Positions 1 through 38,116 of a stretch of 64,000 bases of DNA are shown here, one piece after another. Source of the DNA: a plasmid. The notes beneath the pieces are model-generated. The model was not told the DNA's origin. It did not search any database and saw only the letters and a program-made list of their open reading frames with translations. The translations under genes were made by a program, and so were the position numbers. How positions within the stretch are numbered: the first letter of the stretch is position 1; every line of letters starts with the position of its first letter. The DNA is taken from sequence record NZ_CP104760.1. One strand, written 5' to 3'.

Positions 1-179
1 TTTTATCCCCTTTTAATCGGCGGGAAAATAGAGCGAATGCGGCGTGCATTAATTTCGCCAGCCGCGCCTGTTGATATTTCTCTTTAATAATGTCGATGGG
101 GCTGTTTAATTAATTGTCTCCAGGAATCTCCTGAAAATGCTTTTGCCTCTGCCTGGTTTGGACGCTATTTCCCACGCGA

Positions 180-539
180 TCACGCCTCTGCGGCAGGAAG
201 GCTCTCCGGTGAGGTGAAAATCTGCAGCCCCAGCGACTGGCCGAGGCGGACATCATTATCGGCGCCCTGCGACGCGCCAGGCATGCGCAGAATAGCGTCG
301 CAGCAGGCGATTAAGCGATGCGCGACCGGATAGAGAAAAGCCTCGCTGATCTCGTCGCCGATGCGCGTAGATCCGGCGGCGGCGGCCAGCGGCAGCGCCA
401 GCCACTCGCCGATAACAGGCGTATGGCCGCGTTGATAGATCGCCAGCGCCATACGGTTCATCTTCTCAAGGTTGGCGTGAATCAACGCCTGGTCGCCATT
501 CGTGCCGCTGCGAACCGGTCCTGCAATCAGAATCAGCAT
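180..539 (-). CDS. small hypothetical protein, possibly a nucleoside 2-deoxyribosyltransferase-like (DUF4406-like) fold; overlaps the nudK stop by 7 nt (translational coupling)
   Basis: 119-aa ORF beginning MLILIAGPVRSGTNGDQ...; a short Rossmann-like N-terminus reminiscent of DUF4406/NDT-like proteins (from memory only); its start overlaps the end of the upstream nudK gene on the same strand. Confidence 0.4.
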   Translation of the reverse strand: MLILIAGPVRSGTNGDQALIHANLEKMNRMALAIYQRGHTPVIGEWLALPLAAAAGSTRIGDEISEAFLYPVAHRLIACCDAILRMPGASQGADNDVRLGQSLGLQIFTSPESLPAAEA

Positions 540-4366: not shown

Positions 4367-5188
4367 GTGATGAAAAGAAAAGTGGCCTGTACGATTTTTC
4401 AGGGCGTCGCTGGCGACCACAACGATCTGGCGATACCGGGCGCAAAAGCTCTCGGCGAACAACTGGCGCAACGCAGCGGCGCTACGCCGGTGGTTATCGG
4501 CTCCCCCGCGGCGGCGACCAAAGCGGACTGGCGTGAAGCGCTGACGGCAGCGCTGCCCGATTTGCAGGCGATGCGCGCCCGCTTTGAACAGATTTTCAGC
4601 GCCGGGGCGATCTCCGTGGCCGCCACCAGCCGCTGCGCCGTCTCGCTGGCGACCCTGCCCGCGCTGGCGAAATATCATCCTGACGCCTGTGTGTTGTGGT
4701 TTGACGCCCATGGCGATCTCAATACGCCTGAATCGTCCACCTCAGGGTTTCTGGGCGGCCTGGCACTCTCGGGGCCCGCCGGGCTGTGGCTTTCCGGGCT
4801 GGGAAGCGGGCTGCGTCTCGATCAGCTGGTGCTGGTCGGCCAGCGCGATCTCGACCCCTTTGAAAAGGATCTGATCGCACAGCATAACATCCCGCTGATT
4901 GCGCCCGGACCCGATGTTGCGGAACGCCTGCGAAAAGCGGTGGCTGGTCGGCCGGTTTATCTGCATCTGGACTGCGACGTGCTGGAACCGGGTATCGTCC
5001 CGACGGACTACCGCTCAGAAGGCGGCCTGACGCTGGCGGATCTCTCCGCCTGCTGTGACGCGCTCGCAGAGAGTCCCTTTTCAGGCATTGAGATTGCGGA
5101 GTTCCAGCACGCCTGGCGGTCGGGCGGCGCGCCGGTGTCGCCCGAACCGCTCCTTGAGGCGCTGACGCCCTTGTGGAGAAGGCTTTAA
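4367..5188 (+). CDS. arginase/agmatinase/formiminoglutamase-family ureohydrolase
   Basis: 273 aa; metal-binding motifs [12 protein letters not shown] and [10 protein letters not shown] typical of the arginase family; AAGGA RBS. Confidence 0.75.
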
Positions 5189-6060
5189 CGTCCTTTCTTT
5201 TTGCGTCCTGGCTGGGTAAAGCGTTTGCGGTTGCCTGCGCGCTCATCGCTCTTTTCGCTTTTCTTCGGCGCGCTGCTGATTACCGGCTTTTTCACCGCGC
5301 TGCTTTTGGCCGGCGTTTTTTTCTTCGCGGGTTTATCCTCGGAGGAGGAGTTTTCGACCAGCTTAAACAGCTCAGCCAGTTCGTCGTCGGTAAGATCGCG
5401 CCATTCGCCCAGCGGGATACCTTTGAGGTTAACGTTCATGATGCGCGTGCGCTCCAGCTTCGTCACCTCAAAGCCGAAGTGCTTGCACATGCGGCGAATC
5501 TGGCGGTTCAGGCCCTGCACCAGCGTAATGCGAAACACGAAAGCGGACTCTTTGACCACCTTGCATTTTTTAGTCACGGTGCCGAGCATCGGCACGCCTG
5601 CGCCCATGCCGACGATAAACTCGTCGGTGATCGGCTTATCCACGGTCACCACATACTCTTTCTCATGGTTATTGCCCGCACGCAGGATCTTGTTGACCAG
5701 ATCGCCGTTGTTAGTCAGGAAGATCAGCCCCTGGGAATCTTTGTCCAGGCGGCCAATAGGGAAGATGCGTTCGCTGTGGTTGACGAAGTCGCGGATATTG
5801 TCGCGCTCGCCCTCTTCCATCGTTGTGATAATGCCGACCGGCTTGTTCAGCGCAATCAGCACCAGATTCTCTTCGCTGCGCGGCTCGATCAGTTGGCCGT
5901 TTACCTTGACGCTGTCACCCGGAAAGACCTGCGCGCCGACAGCGGCACGTTTGCCGTTGATAAACACGTTGCCCTGTTCGATATAGCGATCGGCGTCGCG
6001 GCGTGAACAGATACCGCTTTCGCTGATGTATTTGTTCAGGCGTGTGGATGAGTTAAGCAA
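5185..6060 (-). CDS. rluF: 23S rRNA pseudouridine synthase RluF
   Basis: collinear with E. coli RluF ([33 protein letters not shown]...[21 protein letters not shown]); S4 domain plus RsuA-type catalytic domain; start set to the TTG at 6060 (GGAGG 6 nt upstream), which matches the E. coli N-terminus, rather than the upstream ATG at 6120. Confidence 0.85.
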
Positions 6061-6370
6061 GGGAAACCTCCAAAAAGCGCGGACTATACAATAATCTTGC
6101 GGGTAAATCCTGCGCTTCATGCAGGTTAGCCCGTTCTTCTCAACCTGCCCCGTTTATCACGACGGCGGAGTGCGCTTATGTAGCATATTCCCGCTTTCTT
6201 TTCTCCTGTTCCTGATGTCAGGCTTGCCAGCGCCATCACAATTTCCAATGACCCGCCGCCTTGTAAGTTTTACAGCCGCATGACAACATCCGTACATGTA
6301 TATACATCTTGCATCACAACGGTTAACAAAGGGCAGATAATAACTAACAACCCAGCTTAGCGAGGAAACT

Positions 6371-7810
6371 ATGTCAGCGGAACTTCCTGCAACAGAGCGT
6401 TCGGACAGCGAGAGCAAGCGGCTTTCTGAAACCCGATCGATTGATTTTATTCCCCACCGCGAACGCCACGGACATCCGTTCAGTCAGTTCACGCTATGGT
6501 TTGGCGGCAACCTGCAAATTACGGCTATTGTGACCGGCGCGCTCGCCGTGGTGCTGGGCGGCGATGTGATCTGGTCGCTGATCGGCCTGCTTGTCGGCCA
6601 GATTATCGGCGCGGCGGTAATGGCGCTGCACGCCGTACAGGGGCCGCGTCTGGGCCTGCCGCAGATGATCACCAGCCGTATCCAGTTTGGCGTGTTCGGC
6701 GCGGTGATCCCGCTGGTGCTGGTGTGCATTATGTATATCGGCTTCTCCGCCAGCGGCACGGTGCTCGCCGGCCAGGCGATGGCGAAGCTGCTGCATATCA
6801 ATAATGCCGCCGGTATGATCCTGTTCAGCCTGATTATTGTGGTGATTGCGGTACTGGGCTACCGGGTGATCCATAAGCTGGGTAAAGTCGCGAGCGTTAT
6901 TGGCGTACTCGCTTTCCTTTATCTGTTTATCACGCTGCTGTCGACGCACGACCTGACGCAGGTCTGGCAGAACCGCCACTTCGCCTTCTCCACCTTTTTA
7001 CTCGCCGTCTCCCTCTCGTCCTCATGGCAGATCGCATTTTGTCCCTACGTCTCTGACTATTCGCGCTATCTGCCGGAAGATGTGTCCGCCAGGCGCTTGT
7101 TCGGCTCCGTGTTTTTCGGCACCGTGCTGGGCACGCAGGCCTCAATGACGCTCGGCGTTATCGTCGCGGCCATCGCGGGCAGCGCGTTTTCCGGCAATGA
7201 GGTCGGCTATATCGTTGGATTAGGCAGCAGCGCCACTATGGCGATGGTGATCTATTTCGCTATCTGCTTCGGCAAGATTACCTTTACCACGCTGAATGCC
7301 TACGGCAGCTTTATGTCGCTGACCACGATTGTTTCCGGCTTCAGTCGCCAGACCTCTCTGAGCCAGCGCGGACGGATTAGCTTTGTGGTGCTGATGGTGG
7401 CGATCGCCTGCGTTATCGCGCTGGTCAGCGAGCCCGCTTTCCTCAAGTCCTTTACCCATTTCCTGCTGTTCCTGCTGGCGTTTTTCGTACCCTGGAGCGC
7501 CATCAGCCTGACCGATTTTTACCTGATCACCAAAGGCCATATTGATATCCCCGCGCTGTCGCAGCCTGACGGACGGTATGGCCGCTGGAACTGGCCGGGT
7601 ATTGCGACCTACTTTATCGGCGTCCTGATCCAGCTGCCGTTTATCGACAACCCGCTGCACCATGGCTCGCTGACCTGGATTTTCGCCGGGAATGATGTCT
7701 CCTGGATCATCGGCTGGTTCGCTACGGCGCTGCTGTGGCTGGGCATGAGGCGTTTCGACCGTCGCGGCGTATTAACAGAAACGGTTTATCCGACGCGGAC
7801 AAGCCTCTAG
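6371..7810 (+). CDS. NCS1-family (purine-cytosine/allantoin/thiamine-type) nucleobase:cation symporter
   Basis: 479 aa multi-TM protein; N-terminal PHRERHGHPFSQFTLWFGGNLQITAIVTGA motif typical of CodB/NCS1 permeases. Confidence 0.75.
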   Translation: MSAELPATERSDSESKRLSETRSIDFIPHRERHGHPFSQFTLWFGGNLQITAIVTGALAVVLGGDVIWSLIGLLVGQIIGAAVMALHAVQGPRLGLPQMITSRIQFGVFGAVIPLVLVCIMYIGFSASGTVLAGQAMAKLLHINNAAGMILFSLIIVVIAVLGYRVIHKLGKVASVIGVLAFLYLFITLLSTHDLTQVWQNRHFAFSTFLLAVSLSSSWQIAFCPYVSDYSRYLPEDVSARRLFGSVFFGTVLGTQASMTLGVIVAAIAGSAFSGNEVGYIVGLGSSATMAMVIYFAICFGKITFTTLNAYGSFMSLTTIVSGFSRQTSLSQRGRISFVVLMVAIACVIALVSEPAFLKSFTHFLLFLLAFFVPWSAISLTDFYLITKGHIDIPALSQPDGRYGRWNWPGIATYFIGVLIQLPFIDNPLHHGSLTWIFAGNDVSWIIGWFATALLWLGMRRFDRRGVLTETVYPTRTSL

Positions 7811-32664: not shown

Positions 32665-33750
32665 TTATTTCTGCGCCTGGTCTTTGCGTTCGTCGAGAGT
32701 CTGGCGATATTCATCCAGGAAGGGTTGTTCAGCTGGATCGATGCGATCCATGCCGCTGGTGAAGCGGTGCCAGTAGGGATAACGCGGAGCCGGACGCGTC
32801 ACTTTTTCAATGCGCTGACGCTGCTCATCGCTGAGGGTTAGCTCAAAGGCGTTCAGGTTTTCACGCAGGTGTGTTTCGCTGCGGTTGCCGACGATAAGCG
32901 CGCTGACCCCAGGCCGATCCGCCAGCCAGGCCAGACAGACCTGGGCAATAGAGGCGTTAATTTCTTTGCCGACCTGCTCCAGCACCTCGATAACGTTATA
33001 GGCGTGTTCCATATCGTGCACATAGGGTTCTGGCCAGCCGCTGCCCTGACGGGTCGACTCAGGCGCTTTGCCGTTACGGCTGACCGCGCCGGTCAGCAGG
33101 CCTTCGCCCAGCGGCCCCCAGATCAGCGTGCCGATCTCCTGGTCGAGCGCCATCGGCAGCAGCTCGAACTCTGCTTCACGTGATTCCGGCGTGTAGTAAA
33201 TTTGCTGGCTGACAGGCTTGAGCAGGTGTCGCTCGCTGGCGCAGCCCAGGGTCTTCATCATCTGCCAGGCGGTGTAATTAGAAGTACCGAAGTAACGGAT
33301 TTTGCCGCTCTTCACCAGATCTTCGAGCGCGCGCAGCGTCTCTTCTACCGAGGTGACGCCATCCCAGTTATGGATCTGATAAAGGTCAATATGGTCGGTT
33401 TTAAGTCGGCGCAGGCTCGCTTCGCACGCCTTGATAAGGTGGTAACGGCTGGCGCCGCTCTCATTCGGGCCATCGCCGAGCGGGCTGCGCGCTTTGCTTG
33501 CCAGAATGACATTGTCGCGCTTGTCGCCGAGCGCTTCGCCGACAACCTCTTCTGCGCCGCCCATGGAGTAGAGATCGGCGGTATCGATCATATTAACGCC
33601 GTGATCCAGCGCGATATCGATAAAACGGCGCGCTTCGCTGGCGTTAACGTTGCCGGTTTTTTCAAACCCCGCTTTGCCGCCAAACGGCACGGTACCCAGC
33701 ACGAATTTTGAGACCAGCAGGCCCGAGTGGCCCAGTTTCCTGTATTGCAT
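32665..33750 (-). CDS. aldo/keto reductase family oxidoreductase
   Basis: 361 aa; AKR signatures (MQYRKLGHSGLLVSKFVLGT...IDTADLYS...). Confidence 0.85.
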   Translation of the reverse strand: MQYRKLGHSGLLVSKFVLGTVPFGGKAGFEKTGNVNASEARRFIDIALDHGVNMIDTADLYSMGGAEEVVGEALGDKRDNVILASKARSPLGDGPNESGASRYHLIKACEASLRRLKTDHIDLYQIHNWDGVTSVEETLRALEDLVKSGKIRYFGTSNYTAWQMMKTLGCASERHLLKPVSQQIYYTPESREAEFELLPMALDQEIGTLIWGPLGEGLLTGAVSRNGKAPESTRQGSGWPEPYVHDMEHAYNVIEVLEQVGKEINASIAQVCLAWLADRPGVSALIVGNRSETHLRENLNAFELTLSDEQRQRIEKVTRPAPRYPYWHRFTSGMDRIDPAEQPFLDEYRQTLDERKDQAQK

Positions 33751-34266
33751 TTACTTTCCTCCTTTACAGCTTAAAAAGGCGATCGTAGTCGCAACGGTTT
33801 ACGCATGTTTAAGGGGAAAAGCGTAGGAGAGGATTAGGGGTGGTGCAAACATGATTGGGGCTTAAGGCAGAGTTTTCGGTGAAAAATATCTATAAATTCA
33901 GATTATTATAGGAATTGGTTTTGCAGGGGCTTTATATTTTAAGCAAGCGGTAAACTACTTTAATAGTGGTCTTAAACTGTTCTAAACCCATTAAACCCTT
34001 AAGATGGGATCTCATATGCCTGTTACCATTTAACGCTTGTCTGCATTCGCATAATGAAGAAATACGTAATAGGGCATGAAATTCGCTTAATGCTATTTAT
34101 GTTAAATCAAAGCCTCGGCTTGGGAAATTTGAGCATCAGACCTCCCTTAACTCAAATTGGGGATATAAAAAAATGAAAATCGATAGCTTATAAGTTAATA
34201 AATACTTTAGTAATAGTGGATTTTTTTATATATTGTGTTGGTCTGAACTACTAGGAAACATCGATA

Positions 34267-35409
34267 ATGTCTACTGCTATTGGAAGTATGGAAGAAAGAA
34301 ATCCTTCATTAGAAACCAGTTCTAATGATGAACAGTTGATTGATACCTTAAGTCAAAGCGATATAGGTTCATTATATATTTTTGTCATGAGAGGGCACTG
34401 GGATTTTTTAAGGGAATTTTTACGTAAAATTAATCTTGAAGCGGCAATGAGTAATGGTAGGTTAGCAACGTTTGAAAAGCTAAAACTGTCGATGAATGAA
34501 ATGAAGAAAAGAAACACCGTATCCTTTGAAGGAGTGATGCGGAGCATTAAGAAATTATCACTGTCACTATTAACTATTAATAATAAAGCAGTCTACCTCC
34601 TTAATATCCCAAGTGATTATTTTGCCGAAATACAAGGAAAATTAAAGGGAAAGGATAAAAAAGATGCATTTCATGTTGTCGACACGTCTGAAAATCTGAC
34701 TGAGTCAAATGAAAATCCTGTTTGGATTGATTACGAAGGGAACTATGCTTGCTTATTCCCCTCTATTAAGGAAGCGAATAAAAGAGTAAAACTGGATCCC
34801 AAAAATATACCAGGAATGGAAATGTTTGATTCATTATATGGCTTTGAAACCAAAAAAAATCAGTATATTGACTGCCTGATTATTAAAAATAATAAAGCTT
34901 ATTTGTTAATCGATGTTACTGATGAAGATAAGGCAGACTTTTGTTTAGAGGCTAAACTTAAAACTTTGCCAAGATTAAAAATAGAATTAGATAAATTAAA
35001 GAAAACTCAGCCCATTGAAACAAAAGATATATTCAATGTGATTGAAAAGGTTTGCATCCAATCAGAATCACCTTATAAAGAAAGTAATTATTCTGTTCAT
35101 GAAATGGATTTCGTAAGTCCGGAGCTTTCACGATATTCTGGAAGTAAATCACCAAATAGACCTGATATTAGAAATGATGCATTTAATAAAGCGGGGCTAC
35201 AAAAAACCAAAAGCTCATTAATATATTATAAAGTGTCATTCAACTTCGATAGGCGGCACCCAGTGGTGGGCTTTCCTTATAAACTTATTGTGGGAATACC
35301 TGGAACTTATAAAAGAGCAGCTACTGGAAATGGGCGGGTGGATTATTTTTTATCAAATAATTTCTTTACCGTTGATGATTTTAATTTAATTGAACCTTTG
35401 ATTTTCTAA
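34267..35409 (+). CDS. hypothetical protein (first gene of an AT-rich three-gene operon); no recognisable domain
   Basis: 380-aa ORF; AT-rich, Lys/Asn/Ile-rich composition; no P-loop; stop 2 nt before the start of the next gene. Confidence 0.6.
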   Translation: MSTAIGSMEERNPSLETSSNDEQLIDTLSQSDIGSLYIFVMRGHWDFLREFLRKINLEAAMSNGRLATFEKLKLSMNEMKKRNTVSFEGVMRSIKKLSLSLLTINNKAVYLLNIPSDYFAEIQGKLKGKDKKDAFHVVDTSENLTESNENPVWIDYEGNYACLFPSIKEANKRVKLDPKNIPGMEMFDSLYGFETKKNQYIDCLIIKNNKAYLLIDVTDEDKADFCLEAKLKTLPRLKIELDKLKKTQPIETKDIFNVIEKVCIQSESPYKESNYSVHEMDFVSPELSRYSGSKSPNRPDIRNDAFNKAGLQKTKSSLIYYKVSFNFDRRHPVVGFPYKLIVGIPGTYKRAATGNGRVDYFLSNNFFTVDDFNLIEPLIF

Positions 35410-35411
35410 CT

Positions 35412-35855
35412 ATGAATATAGATGGATGCATAAAGCTACTAAAAGGTAGAATCTCATCATTACTTATATATGATGAGATTGAACAAGATCTGATAAAATT
35501 TGCATCAAAAGTTTTAGAGCTAAATGATGATGCGAATAGCATCATTTTAACTAAAGTTTTGATAGAAAAGATAATTAAAGAATACGGTATTGAGTTAAAT
35601 TATTTAAAGATAATTACAGCGCTAACGCATCCAGATGTTGATTTTCTAAGATTAGAATATCTTTTGTTTATCGATGATGAAAGTATAGAGCTTAGCAATG
35701 AAGATATGCAGCGTGCTTATGATCTTGGGTTTTTACGCAACCCCAAAGATCCTGATCTAATAATAGAAAATTATATGGAGCTAGTTGCGCCTATATTCTT
35801 GATTTCTAAAAACTTTATTAAAGAAATAAGCCAAGGTAAGACTAATGGGTACTGA
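35412..35855 (+). CDS. hypothetical protein (middle gene of the three-gene operon)
   Basis: 147-aa ORF translationally coupled to its neighbours (11-nt overlap with the downstream gene). Confidence 0.6.
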   Translation: MNIDGCIKLLKGRISSLLIYDEIEQDLIKFASKVLELNDDANSIILTKVLIEKIIKEYGIELNYLKIITALTHPDVDFLRLEYLLFIDDESIELSNEDMQRAYDLGFLRNPKDPDLIIENYMELVAPIFLISKNFIKEISQGKTNGY

Positions 35856-36480
35856 TATTTTTAGTCTGCTACAGAACATGAGCCCAGAAGAATTGAAAGT
35901 TTTTCAAAACATTACTATGTTTAGAGAAGCTAGAAAATCGTGGGAATGCTTTGAAGAAGTTTTACATAAATTATTACTTAAAGCCTCAGTATCGTTAGCT
36001 CAATCACGAAATCATCTTACCTTCGATAAAACTTCTGAGGATGGGTATTCGGATGTTTTGTTAAAAATTCTTGAACAGTATAAAGATTACGGATTAATTA
36101 CCACTAGAGAAGAAAATAATGGTGGCCATTGTGATATATCTATAAGTTTTGGTGGATTTAAATGGCTTGGCGAGGCAAAAAAAGCAAAAAGTTATGATTG
36201 GGTTTATGATGGTTTTCTTCAGCTTTGCACGCGTTATTCCACCTGCGATTCCTTATCCAAATCAGGTGGGTTAATTATTTATTGTGGGCAAAAGAAGGCG
36301 GGTACGTTTATGACATCTTGGATGGCTCACTTAAAACTTAAATTTAATGACATACAAGATCATGAAAACCATACCGAAGACCCTAATATAAAAATCACCA
36401 AACATACTCATGGTGTTAGTGAAAATACATATAAGGTTATTCATATCCCAGTATATTTGAATTACACCCCTGAAAAGTGA
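35845..36480 (+). CDS. hypothetical protein with a possible PD-(D/E)xK nuclease-like motif
   Basis: 211 aa; GGHCDISISFGGFKWLGEAKKAK gives D-x13-E-x-K spacing typical of restriction-endonuclease-like folds; by eye only. Confidence 0.5.
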   Translation: MGTDIFSLLQNMSPEELKVFQNITMFREARKSWECFEEVLHKLLLKASVSLAQSRNHLTFDKTSEDGYSDVLLKILEQYKDYGLITTREENNGGHCDISISFGGFKWLGEAKKAKSYDWVYDGFLQLCTRYSTCDSLSKSGGLIIYCGQKKAGTFMTSWMAHLKLKFNDIQDHENHTEDPNIKITKHTHGVSENTYKVIHIPVYLNYTPEK

Positions 36481-36487
36481 CTTGCAT

Positions 36488-36519
36488 AAAGAGAAATATT
36501 GGAAATTATATTTCTCTTT
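36488..36519 (+). terminator. 12-bp perfect-stem hairpin (AAAGAGAAATAT-N8-ATATTTCTCTTT) immediately after the three-gene operon
   Basis: seen directly 8 nt after the stop at 36480; AT-rich stem. Confidence 0.45.
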
Positions 36520-36742
36520 ATGTCATTGATTGGTATTATAACCCTCATATCTAAAATTTATTTTTTATAAATATTTATGAAAGCTAGGTTAATTCCTACG
36601 ATATGAAATTTTCTTTTTTTCATTTGCTTTTCGCCTTACTTCAACCGTTAATAACTATTTGTGATTAGGATGTTATTAGTCCAACCAGTTCAGTTCTAAT
36701 GTGTCTATGCACTGTAATCCCCATAAGTCGGTCAAAGTTCTA

Positions 36743-36845
36743 ACTTCATATAATTAGGATTTTAACAGCCAAACCTTTGTGTACTAGCGCTCTACTTCTT
36801 TTGAAAAGTGCTTAAAATCCTGACTTTATATAATTAGACTTATAC
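36743..36845. repeat. two direct copies of a ~20-nt motif (CTAACTTCATATAATTAGGATTTTA / CTGACTTTATATAATTAGACTTATA) upstream of the integrase gene; possible recombinase arm-type or att-associated sites
   Basis: seen directly at ~36743-36767 and ~36822-36846. Confidence 0.3.
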
Positions 36846-37084
36846 AAACCCAGCGACACACCTTGTGAAACCCGGTATCATGTGGATCCGGGCCAGATCC
36901 TGCGCTGATGGCGCTGTTTACTCTTATGCTTTGGCCTGGAAATCGATGACCGGGCATCCTGAAAGGCGCGTGCGCCCCTTTAAAATGACAACGCTACGTA
37001 AAATCTGCAGGAGTCTACCCCTGCTTTTTTCTCAGAATTCACGTAGCGCGATCAAAGATTAAATTGCGGATAAATTAAACAAAT

Positions 37085-38116
37085 ATGGATGGAATCATCG
37101 CCACAAACGCCCTGCTGCCCCTTTCTCCGTCGGATGACGACCTTACACAGCGCCTGCGTGAGTTTGTTCAGGATAAAGACGCCTTTGCGCCCAACACCTG
37201 GCGGCAGCTGATGAGTGTGATGCGCGTTTGTCATCGCTGGGCAACGGCCAATAATCGTACTCTGCTGCCCATGTCGCCAGAAGATCTGCGTGACTATCTC
37301 AGCTACTTGCAATCGATCGGGCGTGCCTCTTCGACCATTGGCACGCATCAGTCGCTGATAGCGATGTTACACCGTAACGCGGGGCTGGTTCCTCCTTCCA
37401 CTTCACCGCTGGTATCGCGAGCGGTAAAAAAGATCAATCGCGTTGCGGTAGTCTCCGGCGAGCGCACCGGTCAGGCACTGCCGTTCCGGCTGAGTGATTT
37501 GCAGAAGGTGGAAGCCGCGTGGGCGGATAACCAGAGTTTGCAGAATATGCGCGATCTCGCTTTCCTTCATGTGGCTTACAGTACGCTGATGCGTATCAGC
37601 GAAGTGGCACGTTTTCGGGTTGGGGATGTCATGCGCGCTGAAGATGGTCGCATCATTCTCGAAGGGTCGTGGACCAAAACTATCCTGGATACCGGCAGCC
37701 TGGTAAAAGCGCTGGGTTCGAAGTCATCCGCGGTGCTGACGAAATGGATTGTCGCATCGGGCTTAATCCATGAACCCGATGCGTTTCTCTTTGCCCCGGT
37801 TCACCGGTCAGGCAAAGTGATGGTCGTGACCGACGAACCGATGAGCACGCCTGCGCTTAAAAGCATTTTCACCCGCGCCTGGGAGGCAGCCGGCCATACC
37901 ACCACTGCGAAGCCAAACAAAAACCGTTACCGGCGCTGGAGTGGTCACAGCGCACGCGTCGGCGCGGCACAGGATCTGGCACGTAAAGGTTATTCGGTAC
38001 CGCAGATTATGCAGGAAGGAACCTGGAAAAAACCTGAAACGCTGATGCGCTACATTCGCTATGTGGAAGCTCACAAGGGAGCAATGGTCGATCTGATGGA
38101 AAATAATGAAGAATAA
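37085..38116 (+). CDS. tyrosine-type site-specific recombinase/integrase
   Basis: 343 aa; N-terminal SAM-like core-binding domain; C-terminal catalytic residues in RWSGHSARVGAAQDL...LMRYIRY (H-x-x-R ... Y). Confidence 0.85.
   Translation: MDGIIATNALLPLSPSDDDLTQRLREFVQDKDAFAPNTWRQLMSVMRVCHRWATANNRTLLPMSPEDLRDYLSYLQSIGRASSTIGTHQSLIAMLHRNAGLVPPSTSPLVSRAVKKINRVAVVSGERTGQALPFRLSDLQKVEAAWADNQSLQNMRDLAFLHVAYSTLMRISEVARFRVGDVMRAEDGRIILEGSWTKTILDTGSLVKALGSKSSAVLTKWIVASGLIHEPDAFLFAPVHRSGKVMVVTDEPMSTPALKSIFTRAWEAAGHTTTAKPNKNRYRRWSGHSARVGAAQDLARKGYSVPQIMQEGTWKKPETLMRYIRYVEAHKGAMVDLMENNEE

Follow-up and report, generated by a model that had tools for sequence, protein, structure and literature searches.

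The interval between the replication endonuclease gene gpA and the portal gene gpQ of P2-type prophages is a hotspot in which several anti-phage systems have been validated (Rousset et al. 2022, PMC9122126). One of the systems from that work, Rst_3HP ('hp+hp+hp'), protects against P1, and one of its proteins is weakly HamA/nuclease-like by HHpred (PMC9122126). A further example of prophage-borne exclusion cargo is lambda RexAB, the effector of which is the membrane channel RexB. RexA has been placed together with RdgC, IML3 and CHL4 in a single DNA-binding fold (PMC11077077, the RexA structure paper). The present work concerns a three-gene cassette, A-B-C, found within a 64,000-nucleotide stretch (the window) of the plasmid record NZ_CP104760.1, a 261,771 bp plasmid of Pantoea piersonii on which the exact three proteins are N5580_21135/40/45, all annotated as hypothetical. 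The cassette is a genuine co-inherited module of uncharacterised proteins, consisting of a predicted DNA-binding protein (A), a small acidic protein (B) and a predicted PD-(D/E)xK nuclease (C). It can be classed as a new family of a kind of system already known, and may well be a self-contained mobile anti-phage or anti-mobile-genetic-element (MGE) nuclease system that is carried by prophages, plasmids and integrative and conjugative elements (ICEs).

The likeness to Rst_3HP lies in the possession of three domain-less genes and in the occurrence of relatives in the P2 gpA-gpQ hotspot. The Rst_3HP proteins (E. coli E1114, pFR109) have 336, 352 and 226 amino acids, whereas those of the cassette have 380, 147 and 211. 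Moreover, when the profiles of A, B and C were aligned with Hp1-3 by hhalign, the probability was 0.1–0.6% in all nine comparisons, and because the value lies below 1% in every pairing the cassette is regarded as a different system. With lambda RexAB the cassette has in common its carriage as prophage-borne cargo and, by prediction, a fold of the RexA/RdgC/IML3-CHL4 type in A (listed value of 4.6 for RexA), but there is no sequence similarity between the two. The predicted effector of the cassette is a soluble PD-(D/E)xK nuclease rather than a membrane channel, and the cassette adds a SAP-like domain in A and an acidic third protein. No multi-pass membrane effector of the RexB type is apparent, B being an acidic protein of 147 amino acids and C a predicted globular nuclease, as judged from the sequence of B and the model of C.

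The comparison with catalogued defence families gave a similar outcome. In PADLOC-DB v2.0.0 there was no match for the A, B or C of the window (E up to 1), nor for 30 relatives of A, and the models for Hachiman, Shedu and McrBC matched none of the three proteins. In contrast to Hachiman (HamAB), the cassette has no HamB helicase gene, and a single relative of C gave a weak HamA match in Pfam (0.0072). In contrast to Shedu/KELShedu, it has no DUF4263 sequence signature. The only PADLOC signal is that of PDC-S54, weakly matched by 4 of 32 relatives of C (best E 2.6e-5), but this is listed as a single gene with neither an A nor a B partner, and the C of the window does not itself match it (E up to 1). 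PDC-S54 is one of 145 phage defence candidates put forward on the basis of guilt-by-embedding within systems of known defence function (bioRxiv 10.1101/2024.01.29.577857). Scans of the A, B and C of the window with Pfam, NCBIfam and PADLOC returned nothing significant, profile searches against all PDB sequences found no match for any of the three, and the literature searches yielded no paper, in the library that they covered, that describes the cassette. Matches were obtained with PHROG families of unknown function, namely phrog_12777 for A, phrog_11490 for B (3e-5) and phrog_9664 for C. An earlier sequence-only reading of the window, which had picked out the operon as a candidate defence or addiction system, had seen no obvious match to a named defence system, and this is borne out by both PADLOC and the alignment with Rst_3HP.

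The relatives of the cassette were collected through C and comprise 3 phage records, 19 genome loci and 46 IMG/VR loci, giving 68 loci in total, within which the A, B and C types were assigned by local jackhmmer over all open reading frames (ORFs). The number of independent lineages is below 68 because many of the IMG/VR loci are near-identical to one another. The order A-B-C, on one strand, is kept in 62 of the 68 loci. Of the other six, three are contig ends (L008, L057 and L058), two are loci in which A was too divergent for detection (L065 and L066, with an ORF of 365 amino acids occupying the A position in L065) and one is a Pseudanabaena locus in which C is disrupted by inserted genes. 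The gene junctions across the family are mostly between -4 and +12 nt. Pairwise identities, tabulated for each of the three proteins, are correlated between A, B and C (r = 0.86–0.91), and therefore the genes diverge together. The GC content (GC) of the cassette is lower than that of its flanks in all 60 loci with enough flanking sequence, by a mean of 14 points.

The family is broadly distributed. Among its hosts are Pantoea, Enterobacter, Klebsiella, E. coli, Proteus, Tatumella, Rosenbergiella, Gilliamella, Moraxella, Kangiellaceae, Cellvibrionaceae, Xanthomonas, Pseudomonas, Vibrio, Rhizobium and several cyanobacteria. Plasmid copies from Pseudomonas (351/126/242 amino acids) and Vibrio (369/132/222 amino acids) have the same layout. 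A word-index homologue search returned seven clusters for C, three for A and one for B, and by this search the exact version of the cassette described here is known from a single plasmid. The disrupted locus mentioned above is that of Pseudanabaena sp. Salubria-1 (L023, 5420-9546), where C lies in three fragments with A and B intact. The insertions contain minus-strand ORFs of 380, 254 and 327 amino acids that are probably mobile elements, and this is the only clearly decayed copy seen among the loci examined.

Protein C is predicted to be a PD-(D/E)xK nuclease because of its conserved motif together with its predicted fold. The sequence-only reading had noted a likeness to the core of such nucleases in a D-x13-E-x-K arrangement; the motif is indeed present, but with a spacing of 12 residues (D97-x12-E110-x-K112) rather than 13. 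In an alignment of 32 sequences, with 23–61% identity to the C of the window, 15 residues are invariant (E65, G94, D97, W107, G109, E110, K112, G123, Q126, L127, R130, Y131, G141, Y146 and H200), and all of the candidate catalytic residues, E65, D97, E110, K112 and Q126, are found amongst them. An AlphaFold2 model built from seven sequences (predicted local distance difference test, pLDDT, 69; predicted template modelling score, pTM, 0.67) contains the alpha-beta-beta-beta-alpha-beta core of the restriction endonucleases, with D97 and E110/K112 placed on adjacent strands. The fold matches of this model have listed values of 8.7 for BamHI, 8.5 for OkrAI, 8.0 for BstYI and 7.9 for BglII, and also of 7.9 for McrC at 19% identity, with CdiA-CT, CidB, Cap4, HamA, NucC and SduA ranking lower. 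Pfam scans of individual relatives (29–32 per protein) were negative for A and B and, for C, gave isolated weak matches to PDDEXK_9 and HamA only.

Protein A evolves fast, with an exhaustive HMMER search returning 6 representatives among 1.84 billion. The sequence-only reading recognised no domain in A, which holds as far as Pfam and NCBIfam are concerned, but the structural model departs from it. The listed values of its fold matches are 8.1 for CENP-L, 8.0 for RdgC, 7.1 for TBP, 6.4 for Iml3, 5.8 for CENP-N, 5.1 for Chl4 and 4.8 for FAN1, in addition to lambda RexA, and the SAP domain of PIAS1 matches with a value of 5.0 over 60 of 65 residues. A Foldseek search of viral models (BFVD) places phage proteins annotated as 'recombination-associated protein RdgC' on top, with a probability of 0.94–0.98 and low TM-scores. 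The family is basic, with a median pI of 8.5. Because of the SAP-like match, the RdgC/RexA-type fold and the basic pI, A is predicted to be a DNA-binding protein made of a SAP-like domain and an RdgC/RexA-type body. The likeness to RdgC is structural only: Pfam scans of the A of the window (E up to 1) and of 30 homologues (E up to 0.01) gave no match, RdgC included, and A is not a member of the RdgC family by sequence. Two residues, D216 and G310, are invariant in A and D202, D300, R302 and G346 are nearly so. The best-conserved motif, K-x5-D-L/I-R-x-E/D-x-F/Y-H/N-x-x-G, spans residues 294-310 and may become ordered only when a partner or DNA is bound.

Protein B is acidic in all 66 homologues (median pI 4.61, range 4.29–5.72), and no residue is invariant in the family alignment. 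There are no detectable relatives outside the family, and neither the B of the window nor its relatives match anything in Pfam or the PDB; in particular, no antitoxin DNA-binding domain was detected in the Pfam scan of the relatives. B is apparently soluble, as judged from its sequence by eye, and is a candidate inhibitor or adaptor of C.

The relatives are found in settings typical of defence or addiction cargo, namely P2 hotspots, sites next to lambdoid Q genes, plasmids of the conjugative and Col kinds, an ICE and toxin-antitoxin (TA) clusters, and here the suspicion raised by the sequence-only reading gains ground. In 24 of the 68 loci the cassette adjoins P2 gpA and/or the portal and terminase genes, and in 13 it adjoins a lambdoid Q gene, with stx1A also present in three of these. 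The other loci belong to further phages, to chromosomes, to plasmids or to an ICE. The interval between gpA, which is accompanied by DinI, and gpQ is occupied by the cassette in Klebsiella 'phage KP12_3' and E. coli TUM13066. The proteins of an E. coli copy, WP_021580613/4/5, appear as 'hypothetical + hypothetical + hypothetical' in Table S5A of Rousset et al. (2022) and are absent from the cloned systems in Table S2 of that study (PMC9122126). In Stx1a phages the cassette is on the opposite strand between Q and stx1AB (L004, 4373-6480, LC567825; L078, 3001-5108). In the Stx1a prophage it is therefore antisense to the late transcript driving expression of the toxin. In Pantoea sp. alder81 the copy is surrounded by TraI_2, ArdC and integrases in a region that resembles an ICE. 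The neighbours across the relatives also include AbiEi and Fic, besides the toxin-antitoxin and ATPase genes named further below, and these settings, the 6.1-kb Col plasmid described there among them, count for the anti-phage reading too.

As the trio recurs in prophage defence hotspots, on plasmids and in toxin-antitoxin islands, it is probably an anti-phage or addiction system, and of these two the anti-phage function is the one preferred here. We infer its mode of action, and with it the nuclease activity, the parts played by A and B, the trigger and the phenotype of defence, and the whole may be pictured as follows. C would be the effector, a Mg-dependent PD-(D/E)xK endonuclease, whilst A would be a basic DNA-binding sensor or targeting subunit acting through its SAP-like domain and its RdgC/RexA-type body. 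The ligand of A would be some feature of DNA that arises in the course of infection, for instance intermediates of replication or recombination, or else DNA that is foreign or modified. B, which is translated just before C, would keep C inactive or form a bridge between A and C, and once A had engaged its ligand C would be released and DNA would be cut. Defence would possibly proceed through abortive infection. A bolder version, which is put forward only tentatively, sees in the trio a new and widespread immune class in which a DNA-structure sensor of the RdgC/RexA fold, responding to intermediates of phage replication or recombination, licenses a nuclease that is otherwise held inactive by an acidic partner. 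Were this true, the trio would be the soluble counterpart of lambda Rex, armed with a nuclease and common to proteobacterial prophages and plasmids and to cyanobacterial chromosomes, and would offer a biochemical way into what sensors of the RexA type recognise.

Several observations weigh against such a function. The cassette contains no NTPase or other usual sensor domain. The model is of low confidence around the D300-L-R-x-E...G310 motif of A, the pLDDT being under 50 for residues 297-299 and 303-308. Non-defence genes are known from the P2 hotspot too, as are partition and toxin genes, so location is not proof (PMC9122126). Some of the 121 genes that neighbour 15 chromosomal loci belong to defence and MGE families, including integrases, Uma2, DUF2887, PD-T4-6-like kinases, mad2/6, PDC-S03 and MkoA, but such families do not predominate. 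Finally, the neighbours in the window are metabolic (malFG, a NUDIX gene and an aldo-keto reductase gene), together with LysR and cupin genes.

If the cassette does prove protective, it would add a taxonomically broad three-gene system to the defence repertoire and would account for one of the entries listed as 'hypothetical x3' in the catalogue of the P2 hotspot. The ligand of RexA has been unclear for decades, and a soluble complex of A, B and C, with a nuclease as the read-out, could be an easier system in which to approach that question. The position of the cassette between Q and stx1 in some Shiga-toxin phages may also matter for prophage biology.

The alternative that survives best, although it is an unlikely one, is that the trio is a tripartite addiction module which stabilises its carrier, with C as toxin, B as antitoxin and A as a DNA-binding regulator or third component. 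The arrangement of a small acidic protein gene directly upstream of a nuclease gene, with which it overlaps by 11 nt, resembles that of type II TA pairs, which the cassette also recalls by being carried on plasmids and prophages. It differs from them, however, in having a larger, obligatory third gene for a predicted DNA-binding protein and in the predicted fold of C, which is of the DNase-type PD-(D/E)xK kind rather than that of a typical RNase toxin. Plasmid-borne relatives also speak for a stabilising role. A Col-type, mobilisable plasmid of 6.1 kb from Klebsiella pneumoniae (NZ_CP075557.1, 6,115 bp, L079), with a C that is ~63% identical, has the trio and a RelE/ParE pair as essentially its sole cargo. 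Relatives with 60% identity are found on IncFII conjugative plasmids with a tyrosine recombinase, a DUF4145/AF_1680 gene, TacAT, ParDE and YafO, and also in a chromosomal islet. The closest relative of A (51% identity) adjoins a RES toxin, a PIN-MazE pair, transposase fragments and an AAA_15/21 ATPase. Yet for the many copies that reside at defence hotspots of integrated prophages or in the chromosomes of cyanobacteria, addiction would bring little benefit, and A is both the largest of the three proteins and strictly co-inherited, which is unusual for a plain TA regulator. The TA and defence roles are in any case mutually compatible.

Two side observations concern these plasmid copies. Gene A of NZ_CP075557.1 apparently spans the start of the record and is not in the gene table. 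The DUF4145/AF_1680 gene accompanies the cassette on the IncFII plasmids and in the chromosomal islet of Enterobacter-type genomes. It encodes a protein of 446 amino acids and in both settings lies ~1.3 kb upstream on the same strand (L071-L076, ~5813-7154); possibly it is a defence gene in its own right that is linked to the cassette.

Somewhat less probable again is a type IV-like or other self/non-self restriction system, in which A would read modified or unusual DNA and the BamHI/McrC-like C would cleave it without killing of the cell. The cassette is accompanied by no methyltransferase, as is the case with type IV enzymes, and the TBP-like modules that the fold search detected in A are also present in DNA-lesion readers of the AlkA type. 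However, no McrB-like GTPase/AAA+ partner is encoded, so that the partnership typical of McrC is missing, and Pfam found no SRA, YTH, ASCH or similar reader domain amongst 30 homologues of A. Restriction of this sort would, moreover, leave the conserved acidic B without a role.

That the trio is a recombination or DNA-maintenance accessory of phages or plasmids, combining an RdgC-like modulator of RecA or recombination with a structure-specific nuclease, seems improbable. The fold of A does match RdgC, with the RdgC-annotated phage proteins heading the BFVD search, and PD-(D/E)xK enzymes include resolvases and recombination exonucleases, of which Hjc-type and NucS entries are among the fold matches of C. 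The cassette nevertheless behaves as variable cargo: of the complete E. coli genomes, 5,426 in number, 21 have the P2-type version and 23 the Stx/lambdoid one, all copies being annotated as hypothetical. It occupies an accessory hotspot in P2 and an antisense position between Q and stx1 in Stx phages, it also occurs at non-phage chromosomal sites, and A has no Pfam match to RdgC. Least probable of all is that the three ORFs are remnants in decaying foreign DNA with no current role on the plasmid, perhaps kept silent by H-NS (which typically targets DNA of very high AT content in hosts rich in GC; the exact version is known from one plasmid only), given that all three ORFs are intact, every family-invariant residue is kept, and the coupling of the genes and the terminal hairpin are preserved.

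The features of the locus are collected in Table 1. The three plus-strand ORFs are confirmed at the coordinates and with the lengths initially reported, A and B being separated by a 2-nt gap and B and C overlapping as described above. The account of an AT-rich segment in a GC-rich backbone is likewise upheld, with a mean GC of 0.325 for the cassette and 0.570 for the flanks; in profile, GC is 0.30–0.34 over ~33750-36750 as against 0.55–0.62 on either side. A Shine-Dalgarno-like AGGAAA lies 9–14 nt before the ATG of gene A. The promoter of the cassette is presumed to be in the leader upstream, where it is placed by inference because the promoter scan upstream of A called no consensus sigma-70 match. 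Downstream of C, the perfect hairpin of the sequence-only reading is real, but it is longer than the 12 bp first assigned to it: the stop codon is followed by a perfect inverted repeat of 15 nt (36485-36499 / 36508-36522), and the RNA is predicted to fold into a 16-bp stem (-18.5 kcal/mol, z = -5.06 against shuffled sequences). It has no U-tract and was not called as an intrinsic terminator by the terminator scan, and is possibly a transcript end or stabiliser. An Rfam search of 33600-37200 found no RNA family. On a plasmid of Pseudomonas sp. HS-18 (L082) an MvaT/MvaU (H-NS-like) gene is situated directly downstream of the cassette (5630-5992), with an AbiEi antitoxin gene upstream, and the presence of the former fits the AT-rich cassette being a target of xenogeneic silencing.

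Table 1. Positions in the window of the A-B-C cassette and its surroundings (domain boundaries are given in residues)
Feature	Position	Strand	Description
Gene A	34267-35409	+	380 aa, pI 8.1; predicted DNA-binding protein
Gene B	35412-35855	+	147 aa, pI 4.5; small acidic protein, invariably between A and C; from ORF and alignment
Gene C	35845-36480	+	211 aa; predicted PD-(D/E)xK (restriction-endonuclease-fold) nuclease
Domains of protein A	residues 1-24; ~30-103; ~105-380		disordered N-terminus; SAP-like helical domain; RdgC/CENP-L/RexA-type alpha/beta body (predicted)
AT-rich leader upstream of A	33850-34266	+	non-coding, presumed promoter region; ORFs of <=40 aa only
Stem-loop	36484-36523	+	16-bp AT-rich stem; begins 4 nt past the C stop codon
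AT-rich insert with cassette	33850-36816		~2.97 kb; from GC profile and plasmid alignment
lox/pox-like 34-bp site	36819-36852		CTGACTTTATATA-ATTAGACT-TATACAAACCCAG; right junction of insert; outside the system
Cre/Panto-type tyrosine recombinase	37085-38116	+	343 aa; resident backbone gene, outside the system

The cassette is here a solitary insertion among metabolic genes, and the defence-island setting that had been proposed for it within the window is ruled out by these neighbours. To its left, the P. agglomerans plasmid p33.1_2 (L002) is homologous as far as a point near 33848, and to its right homology returns at 36813 in the same plasmid and at 36817 in the sister P. piersonii plasmid p277859 (L001). 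What lies between the aldo-keto reductase gene and the Cre-like gene differs among the three Pantoea plasmids: it is the cassette in the present plasmid, oxlT in p33.1_2 (L002, 4150-5928) and an MFS (major facilitator superfamily) transporter gene with others in p277859 (L001, ~4977-6000). The insertion of the cassette into the Pantoea megaplasmid is considered to be recent.

The tyrosine integrase gene that had been noted next to the operon is present, but it lies outside the foreign segment and is a resident gene. It begins 605 nt 3' of C, and its product matches the Cre of the PDB over its full length (phmmer, E 4e-77, residues 10-341). A Panto-type recombinase has been described from Pantoea (PMC4957104). 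The GC of the gene is 0.54–0.57, which is the level of the backbone, with the AT-rich segment ending at ~36816, and the gene is syntenic beside the same LysR and cupin genes on Pantoea plasmids that have no cassette. The recombinase is not part of the system because of this backbone GC and its retention on cassette-free plasmids, and on the same grounds of synteny and GC its membership of the island was rejected.

The lox/pox-like site is located 233 nt upstream of the recombinase gene. Its arm is similar to rox/pox (Karimova 2016). Related half-sites were detected inside the insert by repeat and pattern search, at 36741-36754 and at ~36652 (36652-36686). A counterpart at the left junction was looked for and rejected, the only candidate being an unconvincing half-site with three mismatches at 33893. 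In the three plasmids the right arm of the site is kept, the left arm is variable and the DNA further to the left is unrelated. The fact that the right junction of the insert falls in this site suggests that Pantoea megaplasmids swap cargo at the lox-like site.

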